A stretch of 64,000 nucleotides of DNA from Escherichia coli (GCF_044324785.1 NZ_CP172127.1); one strand, 5' to 3'. Positions 16,713 through 58,569 are shown, numbered from the stretch's first letter. The notes: generated by a model from the letters alone, not told the origin. Numbers and translations are program-made.

Positions 16713-16788
16713 TGGTGGGTCGTGCAGGATTCGAACCTGCGACCAATTGATTAAAAGTCAACTGCTCTACCAACTGAGCTAACGACCC
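16713..16788 (-). tRNA. lysV: tRNA-Lys (anticodon UUU)
   Basis: Reverse complement GGGTCGTTAGCTCAGTTGGTAGAGCAGTTGACTTTTAATCAATTGGTCGCAGGTTCGAATCCTGCACGACCCACCA, 76 nt, encoded CCA. Confidence 0.95.
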
Positions 16789-16792
16789 GAAG

Positions 16793-16868
16793 TGGTGGGT
16801 GATGACGGGATCGAACCGCCGACCCCCTCCTTGTAAGGGAGGTGCTCTCCCAGCTGAGCTAATCACCC
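16793..16868 (-). tRNA. valY: tRNA-Val (anticodon UAC)
   Basis: rc GGGTGATTAGCTCAGCTGGGAGAGCACCTCCCTTACAAGGAGGGGGTCGGCGGTTCGATCCCGTCATCACCCACCA; one of three identical copies. Confidence 0.95.
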
Positions 16869-16914
16869 ACTTCGGTACTTCACATTTTTACAAGAAATTT
16901 AGCTGGCGAGAAAG

Positions 16915-16990
16915 TGGTGGGTGATGACGGGATCGAACCGCCGACCCCCTCCTTGTAAGGGAGGTGCTCTCCCAGCTGAGCTAATCACCC
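16915..16990 (-). tRNA. valX: tRNA-Val (anticodon UAC)
   Basis: Identical 76-nt sequence to copy at 16793-16868. Confidence 0.95.
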
Positions 16991-17034
16991 ACTTCTCAAT
17001 TTCTTGCTACACGGCGGAGACTACATAAAGTAGT

Positions 17035-17110
17035 TGGTGGGTGATGACGGGATCGAACCGCCGACCCCCTCCTTGTAAGGGAGGTGCTCTCCCAGCTGAG
17101 CTAATCACCC
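17035..17110 (-). tRNA. valU: tRNA-Val (anticodon UAC)
   Basis: Identical 76-nt sequence; first gene of the tRNA operon, divergent from gltX. Confidence 0.95.
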
Positions 17111-19808: not shown

Positions 19809-19884
<76 letters not shown>

Positions 19885-19923
19885 AATTTTGCACCCAGCA
19901 AATTTGGTACGTAAACGCATCGT

Positions 19924-19999
<76 letters not shown>

Positions 20000-41718: not shown

Positions 41719-41994
41719 CTATCGCACAGGATGGATAAGATAATTCGCCTTTGTCGGAAAAGGGGGCGGAATTTCTTCTGTGAGGTTTAATGGTGGCGCA
41801 TCTTCTCTCAACTTAAACAAAATCGCCTGTGATGGCTGAAGTTTTGTAGAATGAGTTGTCGTCATCACTGACGTTTTTTCTGTCTCTTTATAGCTCGTCT
41901 CACTTCCACCACCAGAAATAGAAAATGCAAAAACATTGCATGCCATAATAGAGACCAATAAAAATAAGCTAAAAAGCATTAAGTTTACTTTCAT
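41719..41994 (-). CDS. ypdI: small lipoprotein
   Basis: 91 aa; signal peptide with lipobox (SIMAC). Confidence 0.75.
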   Translation of the reverse strand: MKVNLMLFSLFLLVSIMACNVFAFSISGGGSETSYKETEKTSVMTTTHSTKLQPSQAILFKLREDAPPLNLTEEIPPPFPTKANYLIHPVR

Positions 41995-42289
41995 AGAAAG
42001 TTATCCTGAAAATGGTTCACTGAAAACCTACGACGTTATGGCTGTATTTACATATAATTAATCAGTATTTACATCGATATAATAAATGACATCTCTTTTT
42101 GGTATATAAGAATAGTTCTCTGTGACAGGAAGCATATTCCTACAATTGTAAGACTAAAATACTTCTTGCGATAATAACTACAGCTGTAAGATAACCCTTT
42201 CAAAATGACCGTTGCTCTCTGATTTCTCATTTCATGCTCACCCAATATGATGGCGGCGTTTTCTAAAACTGTTAAAGAATGAGGTAAGT

Positions 42290-42922
42290 ATGAAACGTTT
42301 AATTATGGCTACGATGGTCACAGCAATTCTGGCATCTTCAACTGTATGGGCGGCTGATAATGCACCGGTAGCGGCACAACAGCAAACTCAGCAAGTTCAG
42401 CAAACCCAGAAAACGGCAGCAGCAGAGCGTATCTCTGAACAAGGTTTATATGCGATGCGTGACGTGCAGGTAGCGCGCCTGGCTCTGTTTCATGGCGATC
42501 CGGAAAAGGCAAAAGAACTGACCAATGAAGCTTCAGCTTTGTTGTCAGATGACAGTACCGAATGGGCAAAGTTCGCTAAGCCAGGTAAAAAGACCAATCT
42601 CAATGATGACCAATATATTGTCATTAATGCATCTGTCGGAATTTCTGAGAGTTATGTAGCGACACCCGAAAAAGAAGCCGCGATAAAAATTGCCAACGAA
42701 AAAATGGCGAAAGGGGATAAAAAGGGCGCAATGGAAGAGCTTCGCCTGGCCGGTGTTGGCGTAATGGAAAACCAATATCTGATGCCGCTTAAACAGACTC
42801 GTAATGCACTTGCTGATGCGCAGAAACTGCTTGATAAAAAGCAATACTACGAGGCAAACCTGGCGCTTAAAGGTGCTGAAGATGGAATCATCGTCGATAG
42901 CGAAGCACTGTTTGTGAACTAA
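42290..42922 (+). CDS. yfdX: periplasmic YfdX-family protein
   Basis: 210 aa, signal peptide [21 protein letters not shown]. Confidence 0.88.
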
Positions 42923-43446
42923 AGCTGACAGGCAATATATTGAGGTAAAGGATTTAACTCCCTCCAGCCGACAATTTTTTATGACCACAATACGACAGGT
43001 TGTGGTCATAAAATTATTTGGCGCTCGCGGTTCTATAAACTCGCATTTTATCTTCCTCAAAGTAACCCGCAATAATTCCGTGTCATCACAAATCATTTAT
43101 TATGTTATGCTTTATGGTACGCTTTAAAAAGCGTAATCATACCCTTACTTGTAAATCACCGGCGCTTCTTACAGTTGTAAGAATAACATCACAAATGTCG
43201 CGGCTCTCTCTGATTACCGCGAACCAATATTTATCATATTCTTCTTTTCGTCCTCACTACTTACCATGCAGAAAGGAATTGGAAGTGGCGATGAAATGAT
43301 TATCAGCACTTGATACAGGAATTTAAAAATATCGAGTGCAGCTACGACGATATTTTGCGGATTATTTATAGAGAGCGTTATGCCTTAAATAAACGCTAAA
43401 TTAACATATATTTAATTAACTAATAGGTATTGCTATGTCAACTCCA

Positions 43447-43455
43447 CTTCAAGGA
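43447..43455. repeat. target-site duplication, left copy (cttcaagga)
   Basis: 9-bp direct repeat flanking the IS; identical copy at 44513-44521. Confidence 0.9.
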
Positions 43456-43473
43456 GGCTTTGTTGAATAAATC
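43456..43473. repeat. IS903 left terminal inverted repeat
   Basis: ggctttgttgaataaatc. Confidence 0.9.
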
Positions 43474-43511
43474 AGATTTCGGGTAAGTCTCCCCCGTAGC
43501 GGGTTGTGTTT

Positions 43512-44480
43512 TCAGGCAATACGCACGCTTTCAGGCATACCTGCTTTCGTCATTTTGTTCAGCGCTCGTACCAGGGCCATAGCCTCCGCAACCTGACCAT
43601 CGTAGTCACGCAGCGTCAGTGAACCCCCGAACAGCTGTTTTACCCGGTACATCGCCGTTTCCGCTATCGAGCGACGGTTGTAATCTGTTGTCCATTTCCA
43701 CCGCGCATTACTCCCGGTCATTCGCTGATTAGCCACTGCACGGTTACGGTCTGCATATTCACCGGGCCAGTAACCCGCACCTTTTCGGGGAGGGATAAGC
43801 GCGCTGATTTTCTTACGCCGCAGTTCATCGTGACATAGCCGGGTATCGTAAGCGCCATCGGCGGCGGCTGACCTGATTTTCCGGTGGGTTTGCCGGATTA
43901 ACCCGGGGAAGGCCTCTGAGTCCGTAACGTTGTTCAGCGACAGGTCAGCGCAGATGATTTCATGTGTTTTACTGTCAACGGCGAGATGCAGCTTACGCCA
44001 GATACGGCGGCGTTCCTGGCCATGCTTTTTGACTTTCCACTCGCCTTCACCGAAGACCTTCAGCCCGGTGGAATCAATTACCAGGTGTGCGATTTCACCC
44101 CGGGTGGGCGTTTTGAAACTGACATTAACCGACTTTGCCCGCCTGCTGACACAGCTGTAATCCGGGCAGCGTAGCGGAACGTTCATCAGAGAAAAAATGG
44201 AATCAATAAAGCCCTGCGCAGCCCGCAGGGTCAGCCTGAATACGCGTTTAATGACCAGCACAGTAGTGATGGCAAGGTCAGAATAGCGCTGAGGTCTGCC
44301 TCGTGAAGAAGGTGTTGCTGACTCATACCAGGCCTGAATAGCTTCATCATCCAGCCAGAAAGTTATGGAGCCACGGTTGATGAGGGCTTTATTGTAGGTG
44401 GGCCAGTTGGTGATTTTGAACTTTTGCTTTGCCACGGAACGGTCTGCGTTGTCGGGAAGATACGTGATCTGATCCTTCAA
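43512..44480 (-). CDS. IS903-group transposase (DDE)
   Basis: 322-aa ORF filling the IS; IS5/IS903-type transposase sequence. Confidence 0.9.
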
Positions 44481-44494
44481 CTCAGCAAAAGTTC

Positions 44495-44512
44495 GATTTA
44501 TTCAACAAAGCC
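44495..44512. repeat. IS903 right terminal inverted repeat
   Basis: gatttattcaacaaagcc, reverse complement of the left IR. Confidence 0.9.
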
Positions 44513-44521
44513 CTTCAAGGA
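44513..44521. repeat. target-site duplication, right copy (cttcaagga)
   Basis: Identical to 43447-43455. Confidence 0.9.
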
Positions 44522-45804
44522 ATTAAAGTTCTCGATTTCACCGGTGTGCAATCTGGCCCATCTTGTACTCAGATGCTGGCCTGGTTTGGCGCTGACGTCA
44601 TTAAAATTGAACGTCCCGGCGTTGGTGACGTAACGCGTCACCAGCTGCGAGATATTCCTGATATCGATGCGCTTTACTTCACCATGCTTAACAGTAACAA
44701 ACGTTCTATTGAATTAAATACCAAAACAGCGGAAGGCAAAGAGGTAATGGAAAAGCTGATCCGCGAAGCTGATATCTTAGTCGAGAACTTTCATCCAGGG
44801 GCCATTGATCACATGGGCTTCACCTGGGAGCATATTCAAGAAATCAATCCACGTCTGATTTTTGGTTCGATCAAAGGGTTTGATGAGTGTTCGCCTTATG
44901 TGAATGTAAAAGCCTATGAAAACGTTGCTCAGGCAGCGGGTGGTGCGGCATCCACTACAGGTTTTTGGGACGGCCCGCCGCTGGTAAGCGCTGCAGCGTT
45001 GGGTGACAGCAACACCGGAATGCATTTGCTGATCGGTTTACTTGCTGCTTTGCTGCATCGCGAAAAAACGGGGCGTGGGCAACGAGTTACCATGTCAATG
45101 CAGGATGCCGTGTTGAACCTTTGCCGCGTGAAATTACGCGACCAGCAGCGTCTCGATAAGTTGGGGTATCTGGAAGAATACCCGCAGTATCCGAATGGCA
45201 CATTTGGTGATGCAGTTCCCCGCGGTGGTAATGCGGGTGGTGGCGGTCAGCCTGGCTGGATCCTGAAATGTAAAGGCTGGGAAACCGATCCTAATGCCTA
45301 TATTTATTTCACTATTCAGGAGCAAAACTGGGAAAACACCTGTAAAGCTATCGGCAAACCAGAATGGATTACCGATCCGGCATATAGTACAGCTCATGCC
45401 CGACAGCCACATATTTTCGATATTTTTGCTGAAATCGAAAAATACACTGTCACTATTGATAAACATGAAGCGGTGGCCTATTTGACTCAGTTTGATATTC
45501 CTTGTGCACCGGTTTTAAGTATGAAAGAAATTTCACTTGATCCCTCTTTGCGCCAAAGTGGCAGTGTTGTCGAAGTGGAACAACCGTTGCGTGGAAAATA
45601 TCTGACAGTTGGTTGTCCAATGAAATTCTCTGCCTTTACGCCGGATATTAAAGCTGCGCCGCTATTAGGTGAACATACCGCTGCTGTATTGCAGGAGTTG
45701 GGTTATAGCGACGATGAAATTGCTGCAATGAAGCAAAACCACGCCATCTGATATTAACGGGGGCTTCTGGCTCCCAATTTATAAAAATTTCGAGGTTATT
45801 AATC

Positions 45805-47499
45805 ATGTCAGATCAACTTCAAATGACAGATGGTATGCATATCATCGTTGAAGCATTAAAACAGAATAATATTGACACTATTTATGGTGTTGTAGGTATT
45901 CCTGTGACGGATATGGCACGCCATGCCCAGGCGGAAGGCATTCGTTATATTGGTTTTCGTCATGAGCAGTCGGCAGGCTATGCCGCTGCGGCAAGCGGTT
46001 TTCTTACCCAAAAACCAGGGATCTGCCTGACAGTGTCTGCGCCAGGATTCCTCAATGGTTTGACCGCATTGGCCAACGCAACGGTAAATGGTTTTCCGAT
46101 GATCATGATTAGCGGCTCCAGCGACCGCGCGATCGTCGACCTACAGCAAGGTGATTATGAAGAGCTGGACCAAATGAATGCGGCAAAACCGTATGCCAAA
46201 GCAGCATTCCGCGTTAATCAGCCGCAGGATCTTGGCATTGCATTGGCACGCGCTATCCGGGTCTCAGTATCGGGTCGCCCTGGCGGAGTTTATCTTGATT
46301 TGCCTGCAAATGTCCTGGCCGCGACGATGGAAAAAGACGAAGCGTTAACCACGATTGTAAAAGTTGAAAATCCGTCGCCAGCATTATTGCCATGCCCGAA
46401 GTCAGTCACTAGCGCAATTTCGCTTTTAGCAAAAGCTGAACGGCCATTAATTATCCTTGGCAAAGGCGCGGCGTATTCACAAGCTGATGAACAGCTTCGT
46501 GAATTTATTGAAAGTGCTCAGATCCCATTCCTGCCAATGTCTATGGCGAAAGGGATCCTCGAAGATACGCATCCACTTTCTGCGGCAGCTGCGCGTTCGT
46601 TTGCCCTGGCAAATGCTGACGTTGTCATGCTTGTTGGTGCACGACTGAATTGGTTACTGGCGCACGGTAAAAAAGGATGGGCGGCAGATACACAGTTTAT
46701 TCAACTGGAAATTGAACCGCAGGAAATTGACAGCAACCGCCCCATTGCTGTGCCAGTCGTTGGTGATATTGCATCCAGTATGCAAGGTATACTGGCAGAA
46801 TTGAAACAAAACACATTTACGACTCCACTGGTATGGCGCGATATTTTAAATATCCACAAGCAGCAAAATGCACAAAAAATGCATGAAAAATTAAGTACAG
46901 ATACTCAACCATTAAATTACTTTAATGCATTAAGTGCTGTGCGCGACGTATTGCGCGAGAACCAGGATATTTATTTAGTTAATGAAGGGGCAAATACCCT
47001 GGATAATGCACGAAATATTATTGATATGTATAAACCACGTCGTCGTCTGGATTGTGGCACCTGGGGTGTCATGGGCATCGGTATGGGCTATGCCATCGGT
47101 GCTAGCGTGACTTCTGGTTCTCCGGTTGTCGCCATTGAAGGTGATAGTGCTTTTGGTTTCAGTGGGATGGAGATTGAAACGATTTGTCGATATAACCTGC
47201 CGGTGACGATCGTTATTTTTAATAATGGCGGCATTTACAGAGGAGACGGTGTTGATCTCAGTGGCGCTGGTGCACCATCACCAACAGATCTATTGCACCA
47301 TGCAAGGTATGACAAATTAATGGATGCGTTTCGTGGCGTTGGCTATAACGTCACTACGACAGATGAACTTCGTCATGCTTTAACCACCGGTATTCAGTCG
47401 CGCAAACCGACCATTATTAATGTGGTCATCGACCCTGCAGCAGGAACTGAAAGTGGCCATATTACCAAACTTAACCCAAAACAAGTCGCTGGTAATTAA
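45805..47499 (+). CDS. oxc: oxalyl-CoA decarboxylase (ThDP-dependent)
   Basis: 564 aa thiamine-diphosphate enzyme family. Confidence 0.93.
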
Positions 47500-47567
47500 A
47501 TACTGACATCGTCTCCTCTTGCCAACTCATTATCGATGGTGAGGGGACCCTTATCGGAAATACTATT

Positions 47568-48512
47568 ATGCTAACATTTTTTATTGGCGATTTATTGCCT
47601 ATTATCGTAATCATGCTGTTGGGTTATTTTAGCGGCAGACGAGAAACTTTTTCAGAAGATCAAGCCCGGGCATTTAATAAACTGGTATTAAACTACGCTC
47701 TTCCTGCGGCTCTATTTGTATCTATTACCCGGGCAAACAGGGAAATGATTTTTGCGGACACTCGTCTGACCCTTGTATCACTTGTGGTTATTGTCGGATG
47801 TTTCTTTTTCTCCTGGTTCGGTTGCTACAAATTTTTTAAACGTACTCATGCAGAAGCAGCAGTATGTGCATTAATTGCAGGTTCACCTACCATTGGATTC
47901 CTGGGATTTGCAGTTCTCGATCCTATTTATGGTGATTCCGTATCAACAGGTTTAGTTGTAGCAATTATTTCTATTATTGTTAACGCAATTACTATTCCTA
48001 TTGGTCTGTATTTGCTGAATCCTTCCTCAGGAGCGGATGGTAAGAAGAATAGTAATCTGAGCGCATTAATTTCTGCGGCAAAGGAGCCAGTAGTATGGGC
48101 ACCTGTTCTGGCAACGATCCTGGTGTTGGTTGGGGTAAAAATTCCGTCAGCATGGGACCCAACCTTTAATCTGATTGCGAAGGCTAACTCAGGGGTAGCG
48201 GTATTCGCTGCGGGGTTGACTCTGGCTGCACATAAATTCGAGTTCAGTGCCGAAATTGCTTATAACACCTTCCTGAAGCTGATTCTGATGCCACTGGCGC
48301 TGCTTCTCGTTGGTATGGCATGTCATTTGAACAGCGAACATTTGCAGATGATGGTACTGGCAGGCGCTTTACCGCCGGCATTCTCCGGAATCATTATTGC
48401 CAGCCGGTTTAATGTCTACACCCGCACTGGTACAGCATCATTGGCTGTGAGCGTACTGGGCTTTGTCGTCACGGCTCCCTTGTGGATTTATGTCAGTCGA
48501 CTGGTTTCATAA
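47568..48512 (+). CDS. yfdV: AEC-family (auxin efflux carrier-like) transporter
   Basis: 314 aa polytopic membrane protein. Confidence 0.88.
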
Positions 48513-48540
48513 TTAATCATGTTATTGATTTTACATAAAT

Positions 48541-48571
48541 GCCGAAGTGTCTTTTCACCTTCGGCTTTTTT
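48541..48571 (+). terminator. rho-independent terminator after yfdV
   Basis: gccgaag-tgtcttttcac-cttcggc followed by tttttt; lies inside the ORF-track N-terminal extension of yfdE, supporting the downstream start. Confidence 0.7.
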
Positions 48572-48585
48572 CAAGGCATAAGCAA

Positions 48586-49731
48586 ATGACAAATAATGAA
48601 TGCAAAGGGCCGTTTGAAGGCTTATTAGTTATCGATATGACACATGTCCTTAATGGACCTTTCGGAACTCAACTTCTTTGTAATATGGGCGCAAGGGTAA
48701 TTAAAGTTGAGCCGCCGGGTCATGGTGATGATACCCGCACATTTGGTCCCTATGTGGATGGGCAGTCACTCTATTACAGTTTTATTAATCATGGCAAAGA
48801 GAGTGTGGTTCTTGATTTAAAGAATGCTCACGATAAAAGTATATTTATAAATATGCTTAAACAAGCTGATGTATTAGCTGAGAATTTTCGCCCAGGTACA
48901 ATGGAAAAACTGGGGTTTTCATGGGAAACGCTACAAGAAATCAACCCGCGTCTCATATATGCTTCATCGTCAGGTTTTGGGCATACCGGCCCGCTAAAAG
49001 ATGCTCCAGCCTACGATACCATCATTCAGGCAATGAGCGGGATAATGATGGAAACAGGGTACCCTGATGCTCCGCCAGTGCGCGTGGGTACCTCTCTTGC
49101 GGATTTATGTGGCGGTGTCTATTTATTCAGCGGAATAGTGAGTGCACTTTATGGCCGCGAAAAGAGCCAGAGAGGGGCGCATGTCGATATAGCGATGTTT
49201 GATGCCACGCTGAGTTTTCTGGAGCATGGTCTGATGGCATATATTGCGACAGGGAAGTCACCACAACGCCTGGGAAATCGCCATCCCTACATGGCACCTT
49301 TTGATGTTTTTGATACTCAGGATAAGCCGATTACGATTTGTTGTGGTAATGACAAGCTTTTTTCTGCGTTATGCCAGGCACTGGAGCTTACGGAACTGGT
49401 TAATGATCCCCGATTTAGCAGCAATATTTTACGCGTACAAAACCAGGCTATTCTTAAACAATATATTGAGCGAACGTTAAAAACACAGGCAGCTGAAGTT
49501 TGGTTAGCCAAAATACATGAAGTTGGTGTGCCCGTCGCGCCGTTATTAAGTGTGGCTGAGGCCATTAATTTGCCACAAACTCAGGCGAGAAATATGTTGA
49601 TTGAAGCCGGGGGAATAATGATGCCAGGTAATCCGATAAAAATCAGCGGCTGCGCGGACCCGCATGTTATGCCGGGAGCGGCAACGCTCGACCAGCATGG
49701 GGAACAAATTCGCCAGGAATTCTCATCGTAA
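48586..49731 (+). CDS. yfdE: family III CoA-transferase (acetyl-CoA:oxalate CoA-transferase)
   Basis: 381 aa from ATG 48586 (MTNNECKGPFEGLLVIDMTHVLNGPFG...); paralogous to Frc. Confidence 0.88.
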   Translation: MTNNECKGPFEGLLVIDMTHVLNGPFGTQLLCNMGARVIKVEPPGHGDDTRTFGPYVDGQSLYYSFINHGKESVVLDLKNAHDKSIFINMLKQADVLAENFRPGTMEKLGFSWETLQEINPRLIYASSSGFGHTGPLKDAPAYDTIIQAMSGIMMETGYPDAPPVRVGTSLADLCGGVYLFSGIVSALYGREKSQRGAHVDIAMFDATLSFLEHGLMAYIATGKSPQRLGNRHPYMAPFDVFDTQDKPITICCGNDKLFSALCQALELTELVNDPRFSSNILRVQNQAILKQYIERTLKTQAAEVWLAKIHEVGVPVAPLLSVAEAINLPQTQARNMLIEAGGIMMPGNPIKISGCADPHVMPGAATLDQHGEQIRQEFSS

Positions 49732-49786
49732 ATGTTAGATATGCTGGTAAATAGCTCCCACATTTGAACATTGTGGGAGCCGCTAT

Positions 49787-52700
49787 TTAGTCATTTTGTT
49801 GACAGAAAACAGCAATCTCCTGGTCTAACTCTGCAATGTGTTCTTTAACAGAGTTCAGCAACTTAAGAATTTCAGGCTTGCTGTCATCTGAAACGGGCGT
49901 TATTTCTAACTGATGGCTAATATTAATCAACTTTTGCAAATTCAGGATGTTAGCCGCACCGTGGATGCGATGAATACACTGATGGAAAGTTCTGTTGTCG
50001 CCAGCTTCTAGTGCATGAAACGCAGCGGGTAGATCTTTATGCGTTTCATGCTGGAAAGTCATGAGAATCTCCTGCATCAGTTGTAGATCGTTCGCCGTAT
50101 TATTTTTCAGGGCCTCGATATCAAGGTGGCGATACTGAGGTGCAATATGCGCAACCTGGTGTAACTGACTTAAATGTGTTTTCAGTACATCCAGGGTCAA
50201 CGGTTTGAACAAACATAAGTTCATGCCGCAATTTAACCCTTTTTCACGTTCGTTAGCCTGTGCGTTGGCTGTAAGCCCCCAGATGGGTAAGGAAGAATTT
50301 TGCTCACGGAGTTTGCGAGTCAACTCAAAACCATCCATATTCGGCATATTAACGTCAGTAATAAGCAGATCATAATGTTGCATACTGACTTTGTGTAGCG
50401 CTTGCACACCATCAGTTGCTTCATCAACATCATATCCTAATAGGTTTAGCTGGCGTTTGAGTAATAGCCTGTTGGTCGGATGATCATCCGCTATTAATAT
50501 GCTCAACTTTTCAGGGAGTGTCATAGGTTGTTCTGCTTTTGCCTCGACAGTCGCCACTTGTTGGGTAATTTCTACCGGGATTGTGATCGTAAATGTCGTT
50601 CCTATGCCTGGATGACTTTCTAATGATAAATCGCCCTGCATGTTTTTAATTAATTCTTTGCAGATCATTAAGCCTAAACCAGAACCTGTTTGCTGACGAC
50701 CTGCACTTGTTTGGCTATAGCGTTTAAACAGTTGTTGTTGTTCTTCCTGCGATAATCCACTTCCAGAATCCATAATCGTCATTTTGATAACAGCGTGGTT
50801 GTCATCAATGTGACCCAGGGAGGTCGTAATTTTTACTGCCCCCTCGGTAGTAAATTTAAGAGCATTGCTCAGTAAATTAGATAAGACCTGCTTAAACGCC
50901 TGAGGGTCGATCTTAACCTGGTAATGTTCTGGAAACGTACTGCTGCAACTTAATGCGATGGATTTGCTTGCAGCAATCGCACCGAAAGAGTGACAAGTGT
51001 TCTGGACTAAAGTAGGGATGTCGACCCATTGTGGTTGAAGTTGATAGTTACCCGACTCAATTTTGTCGACATCAAGGATTTCACCAATTAAGCCGAGGAG
51101 TGATTGTCCGGTGGCGTAGGCAAGTGAAATCGCCTCCACCCGTTGCTCCTTGCTAAGACCAGAACCCGACAGAAGTTCGAGGAAGCCCATAATGGAGCTT
51201 ATTGGTGTTCTTATTTCGTGACTCATTGTTGCCAGAAACTGGCTTTTTGCGACAGTTGCATTGATCGCTTTATTTCTCTCTACTTCGAGTGCATGAATTA
51301 AATCACGCGTCTCGGTAATATCTTGCCAACCACAAATATAAACAGCATGATCGCTGGCTGGCAGATTGCATAATGTATGCCAGTGATTAATGCATCTTTT
51401 CTCGATGCCATTATCAATTTCAAATACCTGTGTGTATATTGTTCGATTTTCTTTCGTTTCTGCTGTGACTTCATGCGCATTAGAAAAAACATCTTTAAAG
51501 GGTGAGTCACTGTTTTCTAATGGTAACATTGCATTTTTGTAGTAATCCGCAGTGAAATAATGTTCAAAAGCACTATTATGACTAATGACATTACCTTGCC
51601 AGTTTACAACATAAGTTGGATTCGGTAAGGAATCCGAGAGTGCTTTTCGGAATGATATTTGGTTTTCTAAATCACCCTGAATGACTTTACGACGACGAAC
51701 TGAGCGTAACAGGTAGAATCCCCATAAAAGGCTACTGCCAACTAATAAAACGGATAATGTCGTGACAATATAAAATTGCTCGCTATAGAGGTCCCATGTG
51801 TCAATGGTCACATTGGGCATTTTAATCCATTTTTCCGTCAGGCGCAGAACTTCGCTTGGGGGAATTGCATTCAGTGCTTTATTAATAATATCCTTAAGTT
51901 CCGGTTCTCCGCGAGGAAAAGCGAACGAAAGCGATGCATTCTGAACGCCGGGAATAAGAAAATGATAAAGTTCATTAGGATAGTAATGGTCGATCATGTA
52001 ACGCGAATTTAGCTGTGTCGCGACCAGAGCATCAAGTTCACCTTCCTTGACCTTGTGAAATGCAGCACTAGCGTTATCGACTTTTATCCACTCTACCTCC
52101 GGATACATCTCTTTTAATTGCGAATGAAGCTCATAATAATATGGAATGGCAACTTTCATTCCTTTTTTTAATGTTTGTTCACTGTCAGGCGCTTTTTGCA
52201 TGACAAAAACGTAAGGCGTTGTTATGAAGGCTTCAGCAAATGAAACATTATTTTCTCGATCTTCACTATAAATAGCGGCGGGCAATATATCCCATCCACC
52301 GGGGTTAAGCTGTGTCCCCGCATGAATATTGTGTGAAACGGTGATCGGAGAAAAATTTAAACCTGTTTGCAAGGTAATAATATTAAGAATATCACCCATC
52401 ACGCCCCGAACTGAGCCAGTTTCATCTGTCATAGAATAGGGTGGCGAGTAAGGATTTTCCAGCACCTTTAAATCGGGATGCTGCTTAATCCACTGTTTTT
52501 CATGTTCAGTGAGTTCTAATGGTTTGTTCAGAAAGGCCAGGTTTCCTGTATCAAGCCAATTTTGTGATACTTCATAGCGAACTTCATTTGTTAAAGCATC
52601 AACAAACCGATTGAGTACTTCATTAAGAACGACTGAATCTTTTCTGGTTAAGAAAAAGTTATATTGACGCGGCGAGTTATAATATTTCACTACATTTAAG

Positions 52701-53380
52701 GAGTGAGTGAAATAGCGGGAAATCATACTGCTGGTAATAATGTTACTACCAATAAAGTAATCATTCTGTCCGGCTGAGACGGATGCTAATGCCTGATATA
52801 AATTTGTAAAAGAGATAATTGTTGCTTTTGGAAATGATTGATGAATTACCTCGTCTGGAGGGTAATTTGCTACCCGAGCAATATTTACTGGTTTTGATGA
52901 GGTAAGCGGTCTCATTGAATCGTGAAGGGTGGTGACCAGCGCCGGAAAGGTAATTATCAGCGGTTTGGTTGCAGCAATGTCATCATTAAGAGGCGGCGAA
53001 GCAACTAAATGTGATAACACTATATCGACTTCACCTTCTTCCAGCGCGTCCATTGCTTTTTGATGATCGGCGTATTCCCGGAGTGTTAATTTGATATTTA
53101 ACGCTCTTTTTAAAAGATTTAAATAATCAGCATTAATACCACGAACCCGTTGCTGCGAATCGGTATGCAACAACGTAGCCGTTTGGGACTTGTGTACTGC
53201 AATCACAAGATTTTTTTTGCTCGCTAACCAACGTAATTCCTTGTTGCTCAGACGTAGTGGATCAAGTGTGACACGGTTGTTACTACTGATGCCACGATAT
53301 TCGATGTAATCTTCGTCTGCGAAACTTATGGTCGACCAAAGACCACAACAGAGAAGAAAAATATAGGGTAAAAACTTCAT
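49787..53380 (-). CDS. evgS: hybrid sensor histidine kinase EvgS
   Basis: 1197 aa; tandem periplasmic solute-binding domains, TM, HisKA/HATPase, receiver, HPt. Confidence 0.95.
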   Translation of the reverse strand: MKFLPYIFLLCCGLWSTISFADEDYIEYRGISSNNRVTLDPLRLSNKELRWLASKKNLVIAVHKSQTATLLHTDSQQRVRGINADYLNLLKRALNIKLTLREYADHQKAMDALEEGEVDIVLSHLVASPPLNDDIAATKPLIITFPALVTTLHDSMRPLTSSKPVNIARVANYPPDEVIHQSFPKATIISFTNLYQALASVSAGQNDYFIGSNIITSSMISRYFTHSLNVVKYYNSPRQYNFFLTRKDSVVLNEVLNRFVDALTNEVRYEVSQNWLDTGNLAFLNKPLELTEHEKQWIKQHPDLKVLENPYSPPYSMTDETGSVRGVMGDILNIITLQTGLNFSPITVSHNIHAGTQLNPGGWDILPAAIYSEDRENNVSFAEAFITTPYVFVMQKAPDSEQTLKKGMKVAIPYYYELHSQLKEMYPEVEWIKVDNASAAFHKVKEGELDALVATQLNSRYMIDHYYPNELYHFLIPGVQNASLSFAFPRGEPELKDIINKALNAIPPSEVLRLTEKWIKMPNVTIDTWDLYSEQFYIVTTLSVLLVGSSLLWGFYLLRSVRRRKVIQGDLENQISFRKALSDSLPNPTYVVNWQGNVISHNSAFEHYFTADYYKNAMLPLENSDSPFKDVFSNAHEVTAETKENRTIYTQVFEIDNGIEKRCINHWHTLCNLPASDHAVYICGWQDITETRDLIHALEVERNKAINATVAKSQFLATMSHEIRTPISSIMGFLELLSGSGLSKEQRVEAISLAYATGQSLLGLIGEILDVDKIESGNYQLQPQWVDIPTLVQNTCHSFGAIAASKSIALSCSSTFPEHYQVKIDPQAFKQVLSNLLSNALKFTTEGAVKITTSLGHIDDNHAVIKMTIMDSGSGLSQEEQQQLFKRYSQTSAGRQQTGSGLGLMICKELIKNMQGDLSLESHPGIGTTFTITIPVEITQQVATVEAKAEQPMTLPEKLSILIADDHPTNRLLLKRQLNLLGYDVDEATDGVQALHKVSMQHYDLLITDVNMPNMDGFELTRKLREQNSSLPIWGLTANAQANEREKGLNCGMNLCLFKPLTLDVLKTHLSQLHQVAHIAPQYRHLDIEALKNNTANDLQLMQEILMTFQHETHKDLPAAFHALEAGDNRTFHQCIHRIHGAANILNLQKLINISHQLEITPVSDDSKPEILKLLNSVKEHIAELDQEIAVFCQQND

Positions 53381-53384
53381 GTGG

Positions 53385-53999
53385 TTAGCCGATTTTGTTA
53401 CGTTGTGCGAATGTGTAAAGATCCATCAGTGATTTACATTCTAATTTTTCCATCAGGCGACTTTTATAAGTGCTGACAGTTTTGTTGCTGATGAACATTT
53501 TTTCAGCAATGTCATTATTATCCTTGCCATCAAGAATATATCGCATGACACTAATTTCTTGTTTCGATAAGGAGTCGAGTTTTTGCTGGTCGGACGTTAA
53601 ACTTCCAACAAACCGGTTGAGAGAGAAGGGGAAATAGCAGTAGCCATTTTTTGCAGCTTCAATAGCCGCAATGATATTGTTCATGCCTTCTTTTTTACTC
53701 ACGAATCCATTAGCGCCAGCATCAGCACAATGTTTCCCGTAAAAATGGTCATTTTTAGCGGAGACGATAATAATAATTCCGCTATATTGACGCTTCCTTA
53801 GCGTTTCTAACACCTGGATACCGTTAACTCCGGGGATATCGACATCAATGATGACGATATCAGGCTTAAGTGTTTCCACCCGCTGAACGGCGCTTCCGCC
53901 TTCAGTCAACTCTGCTAAGATTTCAATATCGTTTTTGATCAATAAATTACGAATAGCTGCGATAGCAAGAGGATGGTCATCAATAATTATTGCGTTCAT
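53385..53999 (-). CDS. evgA: response regulator EvgA (NarL/FixJ family)
   Basis: 204 aa; receiver domain plus LuxR-type HTH. Confidence 0.95.
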   Translation of the reverse strand: MNAIIIDDHPLAIAAIRNLLIKNDIEILAELTEGGSAVQRVETLKPDIVIIDVDIPGVNGIQVLETLRKRQYSGIIIIVSAKNDHFYGKHCADAGANGFVSKKEGMNNIIAAIEAAKNGYCYFPFSLNRFVGSLTSDQQKLDSLSKQEISVMRYILDGKDNNDIAEKMFISNKTVSTYKSRLMEKLECKSLMDLYTFAQRNKIG

Positions 54000-54223
54000 A
54001 GATTATTCCCTTTGCAATGAAGCATCTCCCTTCTCCCTGTAGTAATACAGACATAAGGCATCATCTCATTTTCTCAATAAAAATAAGAAAATTTGAGCTT
54101 CCTTTAAGATAATTCGACAAGTATACCATATAAATAGTCGGCATAAATGAAATGTCAACAATAAAATCAGGGATTGTACCGATGATTTATAGTTTCACAT
54201 TAGCACTATAAGTCTTCTCACTA

Positions 54224-54241
54224 ATCCTACAGGCGTAAGAA
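54224..54241. promoter_or_regulatory. candidate EvgA box (18-bp imperfect inverted repeat) in evgA-emrK divergent intergenic region
   Basis: aTCCTACAggCGTAAGAA, resembling the reported EvgA half-site TTCPyTACA in inverted orientation. Confidence 0.45.
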
Positions 54242-54414
54242 TTGTATTGCAAAAGCCACGGTTTAGTCCTCTGTTGTTTCTTTTGCACCTCATTTAAATT
54301 AGGCCTCCAACGTTCCTGGGATAATGTGCAACACATGCACTGTGTTTGATATGAAGAATGAATACTCTTTTCATTCAATTCATAAATTTCATCTATGCGA
54401 AATGAGAGATAATA

Positions 54415-55578
54415 GTGGAACAGATTGATTCAAATAAAAAACATTCTAACAGAAGAAAATACTTTTCTTTATTGGCGGTAGTTTTATTTATTGCGTTTTC
54501 AGGTGCCTATGCCTATTGGTCAATGGAATTAGAAGACATGATTAGTACAGATGACGCCTATGTCACGGGGAATGCAGATCCAATTTCTGCACAAGTTTCA
54601 GGCAGCGTCACTGTCGTTAATCATAAAGATACGAACTACGTTCGACAGGGTGACATTTTAGTCTCACTGGATAAGACTGATGCCACTATCGCACTCAATA
54701 AAGCTAAAAATAATCTGGCCAATATTGTTCGGCAAACGAATAAACTGTACTTACAGGATAAACAATACAGTGCCGAAGTCGCTTCAGCACGTATTCAGTA
54801 TCAACAATCTTTAGAAGATTATAACCGTCGTGTACCTTTAGCGAAGCAGGGGGTTATTTCAAAAGAAACGCTGGAGCATACCAAAGATACGTTAATAAGT
54901 AGCAAAGCGGCATTGAATGCTGCTATTCAGGCTTATAAAGCGAATAAAGCTTTAGTAATGAACACACCATTAAACCGTCAGCCACAAGTCGTTGAAGCGG
55001 CGGATGCAACCAAAGAAGCCTGGTTAGCGCTTAAACGTACGGATATTAAGAGTCCTGTTACCGGCTATATTGCCCAGAGAAGCGTTCAGGTCGGCGAAAC
55101 AGTGAGTCCCGGACAATCGTTAATGGCTGTCGTACCGGCACGTCAAATGTGGGTTAATGCCAACTTTAAAGAAACACAACTTACGGATGTGCGGATTGGT
55201 CAATCGGTCAATATTATCAGCGATCTTTATGGTGAAAATGTTGTGTTTCATGGTCGGGTGACAGGGATCAATATGGGAACCGGCAATGCGTTCTCCTTAT
55301 TACCTGCACAAAATGCGACAGGGAATTGGATCAAAATCGTTCAGCGTGTACCGGTTGAGGTTTCTCTTGATCCAAAAGAACTCATGGAACATCCCTTGCG
55401 TATTGGTTTATCGATGACTGCAACTATTGATACCAGGAACGAAGACATTGCCGAGATGCCCGATCTGGCTTCAACCGTGACGTCCATGCCTGCTTATACC
55501 AGTAAGGCTTTAGTTATCGATACCAGTCCGATAGAAAAAGAAATTAGCAACATTATTTCGCATAATGGACAACTTTAA
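54415..55578 (+). CDS. emrK: multidrug efflux membrane fusion protein (EmrA paralog)
   Basis: 387 aa HlyD-family periplasmic adaptor; stop overlaps emrY start. Confidence 0.92.
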   Translation: MEQIDSNKKHSNRRKYFSLLAVVLFIAFSGAYAYWSMELEDMISTDDAYVTGNADPISAQVSGSVTVVNHKDTNYVRQGDILVSLDKTDATIALNKAKNNLANIVRQTNKLYLQDKQYSAEVASARIQYQQSLEDYNRRVPLAKQGVISKETLEHTKDTLISSKAALNAAIQAYKANKALVMNTPLNRQPQVVEAADATKEAWLALKRTDIKSPVTGYIAQRSVQVGETVSPGQSLMAVVPARQMWVNANFKETQLTDVRIGQSVNIISDLYGENVVFHGRVTGINMGTGNAFSLLPAQNATGNWIKIVQRVPVEVSLDPKELMEHPLRIGLSMTATIDTRNEDIAEMPDLASTVTSMPAYTSKALVIDTSPIEKEISNIISHNGQL

Positions 55579-57116
55579 TGGCAATCACTAAATCAACTCC
55601 GGCACCATTAACTGGTGGGACGTTATGGTGCGTCACTATTGCATTGTCATTAGCGACGTTTATGCAAATGTTGGATTCCACTATTTCTAACGTCGCAATA
55701 CCGACAATATCTGGATTTCTGGGAGCATCAACAGACGAAGGCACCTGGGTTATCACTTCGTTTGGCGTAGCAAATGCCATTGCGATCCCTGTTACCGGCA
55801 GGCTGGCACAAAGAATAGGCGAATTAAGATTATTTTTACTTTCAGTAACCTTTTTTTCGCTGTCTTCATTAATGTGTAGTTTATCGACCAATCTTGATGT
55901 GCTGATATTTTTTAGAGTCGTTCAGGGGTTAATGGCGGGGCCGTTAATTCCACTGTCACAGAGTTTATTATTAAGGAATTATCCACCAGAAAAAAGAACA
56001 TTTGCTCTGGCATTATGGTCTATGACCGTGATTATCGCTCCGATATGTGGGCCGATATTGGGCGGCTATATTTGTGATAACTTTAGTTGGGGCTGGATAT
56101 TTTTAATCAATGTCCCTATGGGGATTATCGTCCTGACATTATGCTTAACCTTACTTAAAGGAAGAGAAACTGAGACTTCACCGGTCAAAATGAATCTACC
56201 AGGACTGACCCTGTTAGTGCTCGGTGTTGGTGGCTTGCAAATTATGCTTGATAAAGGTCGTGATCTGGATTGGTTCAACTCGAGTACAATAATAATATTA
56301 ACAGTGGTATCAGTTATTTCTCTGATCTCTTTAGTCATTTGGGAGTCGACCTCAGAGAATCCGATTCTTGATCTCAGTTTGTTTAAGTCCCGTAATTTCA
56401 CCATTGGTATTGTGAGTATCACATGCGCGTATTTATTTTACTCTGGGGCGATAGTCCTTATGCCGCAGTTACTCCAGGAAACGATGGGGTATAATGCGAT
56501 ATGGGCCGGACTTGCTTATGCGCCCATCGGCATCATGCCGCTATTAATTTCACCTTTGATAGGACGTTATGGCAACAAAATAGACATGCGGTTGTTAGTG
56601 ACATTTAGTTTTTTGATGTATGCGGTTTGCTATTACTGGCGTTCTGTGACATTTATGCCAACGATTGATTTTACAGGCATCATTTTGCCACAGTTTTTTC
56701 AGGGATTCGCCGTCGCCTGTTTCTTTTTACCCTTAACAACGATTTCGTTTTCAGGTTTGCCAGATAATAAATTTGCCAATGCCTCGAGTATGAGTAATTT
56801 TTTTCGTACCTTGTCAGGATCAGTTGGTACGTCGTTGACAATGACGCTGTGGGGACGCCGAGAATCATTACACCATAGTCAGTTGACAGCAACAATCGAT
56901 CAATTTAACCCCGTGTTTAATTCATCGTCACAAATTATGGATAAATATTATGGTTCGCTTTCAGGGGTTCTTAATGAAATTAATAATGAAATAACTCAGC
57001 AGTCACTTTCAATTTCTGCAAATGAGATTTTCCGTATGGCGGCTATTGCTTTTATCTTACTTACGGTATTGGTTTGGTTTGCGAAACCGCCGTTTACAGC
57101 GAAAGGTGTTGGGTGA
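55578..57116 (+). CDS. emrY: MFS multidrug efflux pump (EmrB paralog)
   Basis: 512 aa, 14-TM major facilitator. Confidence 0.92.
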   Translation: MAITKSTPAPLTGGTLWCVTIALSLATFMQMLDSTISNVAIPTISGFLGASTDEGTWVITSFGVANAIAIPVTGRLAQRIGELRLFLLSVTFFSLSSLMCSLSTNLDVLIFFRVVQGLMAGPLIPLSQSLLLRNYPPEKRTFALALWSMTVIIAPICGPILGGYICDNFSWGWIFLINVPMGIIVLTLCLTLLKGRETETSPVKMNLPGLTLLVLGVGGLQIMLDKGRDLDWFNSSTIIILTVVSVISLISLVIWESTSENPILDLSLFKSRNFTIGIVSITCAYLFYSGAIVLMPQLLQETMGYNAIWAGLAYAPIGIMPLLISPLIGRYGNKIDMRLLVTFSFLMYAVCYYWRSVTFMPTIDFTGIILPQFFQGFAVACFFLPLTTISFSGLPDNKFANASSMSNFFRTLSGSVGTSLTMTLWGRRESLHHSQLTATIDQFNPVFNSSSQIMDKYYGSLSGVLNEINNEITQQSLSISANEIFRMAAIAFILLTVLVWFAKPPFTAKGVG

Positions 57117-57220
57117 TGGTAAAAGCAAGGGGTTATAGCGGGTAAGACCGGGGATCTTAAGTCTGCGCCATCGGCAGCATCGCTCACCCAGGGAAAGGAT
57201 GGCGATGCTGCGTTGAAACG

Positions 57221-58552
57221 TTATGAACGGCCTTTTGCCAGATATTGATTCATCTCTTCTTCCGGCACCATTCCACCTCCCGTCGCCCACACCAGATGAG
57301 TGGCATTATGCAGTTGTTCTGCGCTGAAACCGTGCATCTGTTGGTAACTTACTGATGCGCACACGCGCTGAGGCCCGGCCATACCCGCCAGTGCCGAAGG
57401 TTCAAGACGAATACCTTCTTCCTGCGCCAGCCAGCCAAGCATGTCATACATGGTTTGATCGCTAAGGGTATAGAAGCCATCCAGTAGACGCTCCATTGCC
57501 CGCCCGACAAAGCCTGATGCGCGACCAACTGCAAGGCCATCCGCTGCGGTAAGGTTGTCGATACCAATATCCTGAACAGAAATCTGATCGTGTAATCCTG
57601 TATGGACGCCTAACAACATACAAGGGGAGTGCGTTGGTTCGGCAAAAAAGCAGTGAACATGATCGCCAAACGCCAGTTTAAGCCCGAATGCGACGCCACC
57701 AGGACCACCGCCAACACCACACGGCAGATAGACAAACAGAGGGTTATCAGCATCGACAATACGACCTTGCTCGGCAAATTGCGCTTTAAGACGCTGGCCT
57801 GCGACGGAATACCCAAGGAACAACGTGCGGGAATTCTCGTCATCAATAAAGAAACAGTTCGGGTCAGACTGCGCTGCTTTACGTCCTTCCTCGACGGCAA
57901 CACCATAATCTTGCTCATATTCCACGACCGTAACGCCATGGCTGCGCAGTTTCGCTTTTTTCCATGCCCGGGCATCAGCAGACATATGTACTGTCACCTT
58001 AAAGCCAATGCGGGCGCTCATAATGCCGATTGATAACCCCAGATTTCCGGTTGAGCCCACAGCAATGCTGTATTGGCTAAAGAACTGTTTAAATTCCGGA
58101 GAAAGCAGTTTGCTGTAGTCATCTTCAAGCGTCAGCAACCCCGCTTCCAGAGCCAGTTTTTCTGCATGTGCCAGGACTTCATAAATCCCGCCGCGTGCTT
58201 TTATGGAGCCGGAAATGGGCAAATGGCTATCTTTTTTCAGTAGCAGTTGCCCGCTGATCGGTTGTTGATATTCCTTTTCCAGCCGTTTTTGCATAGCCGG
58301 AATGGCAACCAGTTCTGATTCAATAATCCCCCCAGTGGCAGCAGTTTCAGGAAATGCTTTTGCCAGATAGGGTGCAAAACGAGATAAGCGCGCATGGGCG
58401 TCCTGAACATCCTGTTCGGTCAGGCCAACATAAGGTAAACCTTCAGCCAATGAGGTCGTGCCAGGATTAAACCAGGTGGTTTCTTTAAGAGCAACCAGAT
58501 CCTTTACCAACGGATACTGGGCGATGAGCGAGTTCATTTTAGCGTTTTCCAT
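57221..58552 (-). CDS. dsdA: D-serine ammonia-lyase (D-serine dehydratase)
   Basis: 443 aa PLP enzyme (SGSIKARGG lysine motif). Confidence 0.95.
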
Positions 58553-58569
58553 AGTACGTCTCTTTGCGC

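Follow-up and report, generated by a model that had tools for sequence, protein, structure and literature searches.

An IS903B insertion in codon 8 of frc, very probably a null allele of formyl-CoA:oxalate CoA-transferase, in an Escherichia coli isolate

Introduction

In a stretch of 64,000 nucleotides from Escherichia coli (GCF_044324785.1, NZ_CP172127.1), hereafter referred to as the window, the gene frc (yfdW), which encodes FCOCT (formyl-CoA:oxalate CoA-transferase), is split after its seventh codon by a complete copy of the insertion sequence (IS) IS903B. The insertion is very probably a simple null mutation of frc, with probable polarity on oxc, the next gene downstream. The part of the window concerned, at approximately 42-54 kb, corresponds to the E. 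coli yfdX / frc-oxc-yfdV-yfdE / evgSA / emrKY region. A preliminary description of this DNA, made from the sequence alone, had reported that frc was cut after codon 7 by an IS, and this was borne out by a 9-bp target duplication, by relatives in which the site is empty and by a Frc protein of 416 aa that is restored when the element is removed. The same description regarded the entire operon as ‘decapitated’, which is an overstatement, since the EvgA box and promoter region upstream of frc are intact and yfdV possesses an RpoD promoter of its own.

We propose that IS903B transposed into codon 8 once and recently, and that this would have produced a null allele of FCOCT, in which the 5' stub could yield only 11 aa, the 3' part would be closed to translation by an in-frame stop within the IS, and any restart would occur without a ribosome-binding site. 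On exposure to acid, or on activation of EvgS, the intact EvgA-box promoter would fire into the IS and generate a transcript that is untranslated for approximately 1,075 nt, from which Rho-dependent polarity would lower oxc, while yfdV-yfdE, having their own promoter, would remain expressed at a basal level or above. The capture of IS903B at this position would reflect the preference of IS903 for AT-rich, H-NS-bound DNA, and not selection on frc. For this isolate, we predict that formyl-CoA transferase is lost and, with it, the acid-tolerance response induced by oxalate, that oxc is probably reduced and that general acid resistance is unaffected, an outcome of local interest. The locus is also a clean natural case of IS903B landing in AT-rich, H-NS-bound DNA, for which matched empty-site relatives could serve as isogenic controls.

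Results

A complete IS903B element within frc

The block inserted in frc comprises exactly 1,057 bp (43456-44512) and is bounded by inverted repeats of 18 bp without mismatch (GGCTTTGTTGAATAAATC; 43456-43473 and 44495-44512), beyond which the terminal repeats continue imperfectly up to 33 nt. The 18-bp repeat is matched twice in the window and not at all in 100 shuffled sequences (0 expected by chance), and the window holds this one copy of IS903B only. On either side lies a direct 9-bp target-site duplication, CTTCAAGGA. The element carries an intact transposase open reading frame (ORF), which lies antisense to the operon at 43512-44480 on the minus strand, as the preliminary description had stated; it encodes 322 aa by the longest-ORF rule, its 969-nt extent equals that of the RefSeq annotation, and its product aligns with the complete model NF033579 (IS5 family transposase; positions 1-289/289, 357 bits where the cut-off is 140). 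Copies of the element in strains ECGC74 and LA3, whose transposases are named ‘IS5-like element IS903B family’ in RefSeq, are identical to that of the window at 1057/1057 bases, and identity to copies annotated as IS903B in RefSeq is 99-100% throughout. The element thus agrees with IS903B in all the features compared, namely its length, its inverted repeats, the 9-bp duplication, the transposase and the identity to named copies.

IS903 was first described on Tn903. The IS903/IS903B elements (IS5 family, IS903 group) share with the present copy the length of 1,057 bp, the 18-bp GGCTTTGTTGAATAAATC ends, the 9-bp duplication and a single DDE transposase ORF; no difference was found between them, and what is new in the window element, a canonical copy, is its chromosomal site. 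A GC-rich hairpin of 7 pairs (CCCTGCG-GGCTG-CGCAGGG, 44212-44230) lies within the transposase coding region and is terminator-like on the transposase strand.

The remnants of frc

The start codon of frc is at 43435-43437 and codons 1-7 (MSTPLQG) run to 43455, where the reading frame enters IS903B and closes at a TAA (43468-43470), giving the 11-aa peptide MSTPLQGGFVE. When IS903B and one copy of the duplication were removed in silico, the resulting 416-aa Frc was 100% identical to E. coli K-12 YfdW (PDB 1pt5, 1pqy), and the remnant is therefore not decayed. Translational read-in from the IS to the 3' part is blocked by a TGA within the IS end, at the position given for it in the preliminary description (44465-44467). 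The first standard in-frame start thereafter is a GTG at 44546 (Val16), which would give 401 aa compared to the native 416; its duplex energy with the anti-Shine-Dalgarno (SD) sequence is -2.3 kcal/mol, the weakest among the starts tested (oxc -6.6, yfdX -6.9), in agreement with the earlier identification of this GTG as the first candidate start, with no obvious SD. The related statement that no in-frame ATG follows the IS is correct between the IS end and the GTG, but not beyond it, as an ATG (Met25) at 44573-44575 would give a product of 392 aa. Judged as a functional gene, frc fails on three counts: it is split after codon 7, it has an in-frame stop, and its restart codons have no SD.

The Pfam domain CoA_transf_3 (PF02515) spans residues 5-393 of Frc and aligns from model position 1. 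Residues 4-20 align with the paralogue YfdE, PFEGLLVIDMTHVLNGP, and include a conserved N-terminal block, P-x-x-G-(I/L)-x-V-(L/I)-D-x-T, at the beginning of the CoA-transferase III domain. Translation from Val16 would delete residues 1-15, and from Met25 residues 1-24; because CoA_transf_3 begins at residue 5, either product would be without the first conserved block of the fold. In class III CoA-transferases, this block would form the nucleotide-binding large domain's first strand and loop; when the reconstructed Frc was modelled with AlphaFold2 from its single sequence, so as to place residues 8-13 in that strand, the model was unusable (predicted local distance difference test score of 34). 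As the N-terminal block is lost and the ribosome-binding site is missing, the allele is best called null, and on these sequence features functional Frc is most likely not made in this strain. Loss of formyl-CoA transferase activity was one of the outcomes foreseen in the preliminary description and is the expected one, given the split gene, the restarts without SD and the removal of the conserved block.

Genuineness, age and strain-specificity of the insertion

Relatives of the window were found by look-up of its exact EvgS protein. An ENA scaffold (L012) has 0 mismatches to the window over the 2.7 kb left of the IS, and 0 mismatches with 1 gap over 16.7 kb to the right, while a 5.7-Mb GenBank contig (L015, GCA_053151395.1) differs from the window flanks by 0-2 mismatches. 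Both carry an empty site, that is, an uninterrupted ATGTCAACTCCACTTCAAGGAATTAAAG with a single CTTCAAGGA, and the window sequence equals this empty site plus IS903B plus the 9-bp duplication. A 1,401-bp junction query found no collinear match at window-level identity among 5,426 complete RefSeq E. coli genomes, and the frc-IS junction sequence was not found in GTDB species representatives or in JGI metagenome contigs. Each of the IS903B insertions inspected near frc in other genomes is at another site and has a target duplication other than that of the window. The insertion of IS903B in frc is genuine, recent and strain-specific.

In the public assembly collection, 268 blocks contain the exact EvgS protein of the window. 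The closest of the complete RefSeq genomes is only 98.4% identical over 19.5 kb (window 44513-64000), with the divergence evenly spread, and the lineage of the window seems to be without a complete RefSeq genome. In the near-identical empty-site relative GCA_053151395.1, evgA, the activator of the same operon, is itself split by an IS1 (L015:6605-7996).

EvgA control and expression of the downstream genes

The EvgA box and native promoter region of frc are intact and point into IS903B. Membership of the EvgA regulon, as proposed in the preliminary description, agrees with the perfect box 252 bp upstream of frc and a second box upstream of yfdX; these motifs support direct control of the locus by EvgA, for which induction is known from the K-12 literature. 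EvgA-binding inverted repeats have been described upstream of yfdX and of yfdW, with induction of yfdX and yfdWUVE (PMC3720670); evgS-constitutive mutants have frc and oxc among their most highly induced genes (PMC4283999), and yfdX, frc, yfdV and oxc are among those most strongly induced by acid stress (PMC10746267). The cited papers on the locus credit its control to EvgA (PMC3720670, PMC4283999, PMC10746267); nothing pointing to YdeO, which the preliminary description had named beside EvgA, was found, although no search aimed at it was made. In the account that PMC3720670 gives when citing Fontenot 2013, the oxalate-induced acid-tolerance response needs both YfdW and YfdU. The window shares with this EvgA-activated oxalate acid-tolerance locus of K-12 (yfdX/yfdWUVE) its gene order, EvgA boxes, yfdV spacer promoter and protein sequences; it differs in that frc is split after codon 7, and the FCOCT step for the oxalate-induced response should be missing.

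A terminator-like hairpin follows yfdX (42977-43013), and frc therefore has its own transcription unit. The promoter-like site in the yfdX-frc spacer corresponds to a K-12 promoter, TTTATA-18-AATAAT, that was assigned to frc by systematic evolution of ligands by exponential enrichment (SELEX) with RpoD, in a spacer that is also flagged as H-NS-bound (PMC3946193). A transcript from the native promoter region would have an untranslated stretch of 1,075 nt, between 43471 and at least 44545. This part contains an excess of C over G that may form a Rho entry site (C/G 1.5-1.75 over 43510-43780), and no convincing intrinsic terminator was found in it (43471-44545). Rho-dependent polarity on oxc is likely. 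In the oxc-yfdV spacer, a promoter at 47503-47533 is identical to that assigned to yfdV by genomic SELEX in K-12, CTGACA-19-CATTAT (PMC3946193). Because of this promoter, yfdV and yfdE are not wholly dependent on transcription through the IS, and its presence implies a predicted yfdV(-yfdE) transcript separate from that driven by EvgA. The claim that both genes must be transcribed through or out of the IS is therefore unnecessary.

Recurrent insertions of IS903B around the locus

The 5,426 complete E. coli genomes were surveyed for IS903B copies no more than about 1.2 kb from the start of frc. As the search joins pieces on one strand only, it was repeated with the IS reverse-complemented and the geometry kept; 45 records containing inverted IS pairs confounded a combined dual-orientation query, and single-orientation queries were used instead. 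In the orientation of the window, 18 genomes represent seven independent events near frc (the window not counted), and in the flipped orientation four genomes represent three events (LA3, 730V1 and AW1.7, the last present twice). In total, there are 10 other independent events in 22 complete genomes around yfdX-frc-oxc (window 41800-45800). An initial impression that all insertions share the window's orientation was rejected as an ascertainment artefact once the flipped-IS control had returned the three opposite events.

Target duplications of 9 bp were found at eight other inspected insertions as well. Within frc, AR_0019 carries IS903B 15 bp downstream of the window's site (duplication TTCTCGATT), six 0H strains (0H15-0H26) at about codon 46 (ACGTAACGC), and AH04 / AH02 / CT01 in the middle of the gene (TATCCGAAT); ECGC74 has it at about codon 29 of oxc (CTATTTATG), 165 / CREC-591 / 779 / CM188248 in codons 3-5 of yfdX (CGTTTAATT), and both EC21Z-137 / CT29 (TAAAACTGT) and YJ6 (GATAATAAC) upstream of yfdX. 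The IS903-like element of YJ6 directly adjoins the sequence equivalent to window 42175-42192; in the window, this is a second, degenerate EvgA-like box, which has 3 mismatches and follows the yfdX box 20 bp further downstream. In 730V1 an IS5 and an IS903B both occupy the yfdX-frc spacer (L009:331-2504), and the Shiga toxin-producing strain 2012EL-2448 has an IS3-family element inside yfdE together with a truncated evgS (L023:5565-9565).

Five NCBI draft contigs (L017-L021), which come from distinct lineages (8-76 differences per 4.1 kb), all begin at the window-equivalent position 44523/44524, and this suggests further repeat insertions within 10 bp of the window's site. Look-up of the 401-aa product returned draft contigs only, each beginning 23-36 nt upstream of the GTG; two of these (L016 and L022) begin with Nextera adapter sequence. 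The window's site, that of AR_0019 15 bp away and the five contig breaks are the candidates for a micro-hotspot in frc.

The GC content of the frc neighbourhood is 33-47%. With identical geometry and the window's orientation, eight genomes have IS903B in the evgA-emrK spacer (38% GC; window 53400-55000; independence unchecked), and none has it at the control locus fryA (55% GC). Insertion hotspots of IS903 in E. coli coincide with H-NS-bound DNA (bioRxiv 10.1101/2024.02.16.580519). Since the locus is AT-rich, the corresponding K-12 spacer is H-NS-bound and this bias of IS903 is documented, target preference explains the recurrence. The recurrence of IS903B thus fits target preference, selection on frc is not required, and both orientations occur. 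The case resembles H-NS-directed transposon capture, as which the IS903 hotspots of Swingle et al. (2004) have been reinterpreted (bioRxiv 10.1101/2024.02.16.580519), in having the same AT-rich, H-NS-bound target, and differs from it in resting on comparative genomics of natural isolates, with H-NS occupancy taken from K-12 SELEX.

Annotation of interrupted genes

In three genomes with insertions at unrelated sites, the Prokaryotic Genome Annotation Pipeline (PGAP) starts the interrupted gene at an ATT in the IS end, namely frc in AR_0019 (L002:4217-5452) and 0H26 (L001:4316-5452), and oxc in ECGC74 (L003:4566-6200). This ATT is 13 nt inside the IS end (ATT CAA CAA AGC C, followed by the target), and its equivalent in the window (44500) is out of frame. 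The PGAP starts look like an annotation artefact that hides knock-outs, and where frc or oxc is labelled intact in this way, pangenome or presence/absence analyses will miss IS903B knock-outs.

Discussion

Two alternatives would deny that frc has been lost, and of these an assembly artefact, that is, a repeat wrongly placed in frc, is hardly credible. IS elements are commonly misassembled in general, but nothing specific to the frc locus points to this; misjoining does not yield a complete element between perfect 9-bp direct repeats with a single copy of the repeat in empty-site relatives, and misassembly is effectively excluded because an empty site, an IS and a 9-bp duplication together are the signature of transposition. 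The preliminary description had named such an artefact as a ground for refutation; the empty sites of L012 and L015, with their single CTTCAAGGA, point to transposition instead. Scarcely more probable is that a shortened but functional Frc is made from the GTG at 44546 (401 aa) or the ATG at 44573 (392 aa), so that the pathway works. The 401-aa ORF is open from 44546, gene callers have accepted its product on draft contigs, and PGAP calls comparable IS-interrupted frc and oxc genes intact. Set against this are the missing SD at the GTG, the loss of at least the 11 first positions of CoA_transf_3, including the block conserved between Frc and YfdE, and the repetition of the ATT starts as one pattern at three unrelated sites, which marks them as a product of annotation.

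Two others accept the insertion and read it differently. The IS might serve as a mobile promoter, in that an outward or hybrid promoter at its transposase-proximal end would drive EvgA-independent, constitutive expression of the frc remnant, oxc, yfdV and yfdE, such that the operon is rewired rather than silenced. The inverted repeat does contain a -35-like TCAACA, 16 bp from a TAAAGT in frc, and this hybrid matches the consensus at 8/12 positions; the window's orientation is shared by 8 of the 11 independent insertions around the locus; and IS903-group elements of Paracoccus drove reporter genes in E. coli (PMC9208149). Yet an 8/12 match is at chance level, our consensus scan found no plus-strand promoter of at least 9/12 anywhere in IS903B, and the numbers of promoter-like sites in the element equal the shuffled expectation. 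The ratio of eight events (window included) to three opposite is not significant (two-sided binomial p = 0.23), and the hybrid -10 element would differ at all other insertion sites. In the literature searched, IS903B is described as a gene disruptor only (for example of mgrB), and no outward promoter was found for enterobacterial IS903/IS903B. We consider a mobile promoter improbable, and the IS-driven constitutive expression envisaged in the preliminary description is without sequence support. Also unlikely, albeit a little less so, is positive selection as the source of the recurrent hits on yfdX-frc-oxc, favouring strains in which the oxalate/formyl-CoA module is lost or altered, for instance because the acid-induced operon carries a cost in some niches. 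Ten other independent IS903B insertions near the frc start in the 5,426 genomes would favour this, as would IS of other families in the operon (in yfdE of 2012EL-2448 and the spacer of 730V1) and the five draft contigs from distinct lineages that start 2-3 nt past the window's target site. However, the neighbouring AT-rich evgA-emrK spacer is hit at a similar rate (8 genomes, one orientation only) and the GC-typical control not at all, the insertions, which occur in both orientations, are dispersed among promoters, yfdX, frc and oxc, IS903 has its documented bias to H-NS-bound DNA, and the hits are mostly singletons or small clones rather than expanding lineages. The broader proposal, that the AT-rich island flanking evgAS (yfdX-frc-oxc and evgA-emrK) is a population-wide IS903B hotspot with a micro-hotspot in the first ~30 bp of frc, and that it acts as a recurrent, possibly selected switch-off or rewiring of the oxalate-dependent branch of the EvgA acid response, appears to us equally doubtful.

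We prefer to read the insertion as a null mutation that probably has a polar effect on oxc; several points weigh against this reading. For residues 1-15 of Frc, the case is built on conservation and on the limits of the domain. General principles are the only ground for polarity, and oxc might have internal promoters in the 3' part of frc, where 45400-45806 shows chance-level 8/12 matches only. The 8/12 hybrid site is present, and consensus scans may miss a weak or non-canonical outward promoter. Finally, the hotspot counts are confounded by clonal relatedness and compare two control loci only.

The insertion frc::IS903B is an ordinary event, of the same kind as IS903B disruptions of mgrB in Klebsiella. 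In colistin-resistant Klebsiella pneumoniae, mgrB::IS903B involves the same element and a simple disruption of a short 5' coding region that creates a null allele; in contrast, the frc insertion has no known selectable phenotype, its target is an acid-tolerance enzyme gene, and polarity on a downstream operon is possible. With IS-mediated activation (IS5 at bgl/flhDC, and outward -35 or complete promoters) it shares the position of an IS end directly 5' of otherwise intact genes, within a region silenced by H-NS, but it shows neither an outward promoter signal above chance nor a significant orientation bias, and we do not place it in that class.

Gene context and other features

The genes of the locus were identified as full-length matches to NCBIfam equivalogs, and the coordinates of all features are collected in Table 1. 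For yfdE, the true start is the ATG at 48586, and not the GTG at 48547 given in the preliminary description.

Table 1. Features of the frc locus and of the inserted element, in window coordinates.
Feature	Position	Strand	Basis or remark
EvgA box upstream of yfdX, TTCCTACAATTGTAAGAC	42137-42154	plus	1 mismatch to TTCYTACANNTGTARGAA
yfdX, intact, 210 aa	42290-42922	plus	NF007645, full length
15-pair hairpin with T-rich tail after yfdX, terminator-like	42977-43013	plus	hairpin scan
Promoter-like TTTATC-18-AATAAT, yfdX-frc spacer	43047-43076	plus	corresponds to K-12 RpoD-SELEX promoter (PMC3946193)
EvgA box upstream of frc, TTCTTACAGTTGTAAGAA	43166-43183	plus	perfect; 252 bp before frc ATG; intact, left of IS
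frc 5' fragment, codons 1-7	43435-43455	plus	reading-frame analysis
Target duplication, left copy, CTTCAAGGA	43447-43455		
Complete IS903B (IS5 family, IS903 group)	43456-44512	minus	1,057 bp
IS903B transposase ORF, intact	43512-44480	minus	antisense to frc; matches NF033579
TGA inside IS end, in frame with frc 3' part	44465-44467	plus	blocks translational read-in
Hybrid promoter-like TCAACA-16-TAAAGT, 8/12	44502-44529	plus	sole junction candidate; chance level
Target duplication, right copy, CTTCAAGGA	44513-44521		
frc 3' fragment, codon 8 to stop	44522-45751	plus	0 mutations compared to K-12 YfdW
oxc (yfdU), intact, good SD	45805-47499	plus	NCBIfam; gene most exposed to polarity
RpoD promoter CTGACA-19-CATTAT, oxc-yfdV spacer	47503-47533	plus	exact 31-mer match to K-12
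yfdV, intact	47568-48512	plus	NF007384, 314/314
yfdE (acetyl-CoA:oxalate CoA-transferase), intact, 381 aa	48586-49731	plus	NCBIfam; start is ATG
evgS, intact	49787-53380	minus	two-component system activating the locus
evgA, intact	53385-53999	minus	two-component system activating the locus
Known evgA-emrK EvgA box	54224		motif scan

Apart from tRNA clusters, the window has no Rfam match at gathering score. The tRNA clusters are ordinary and comprise Lys-Val-Val-Val at 16713-17110, Ala-Ala at 19809-19999 and Arg-CCT at 61160-61234.

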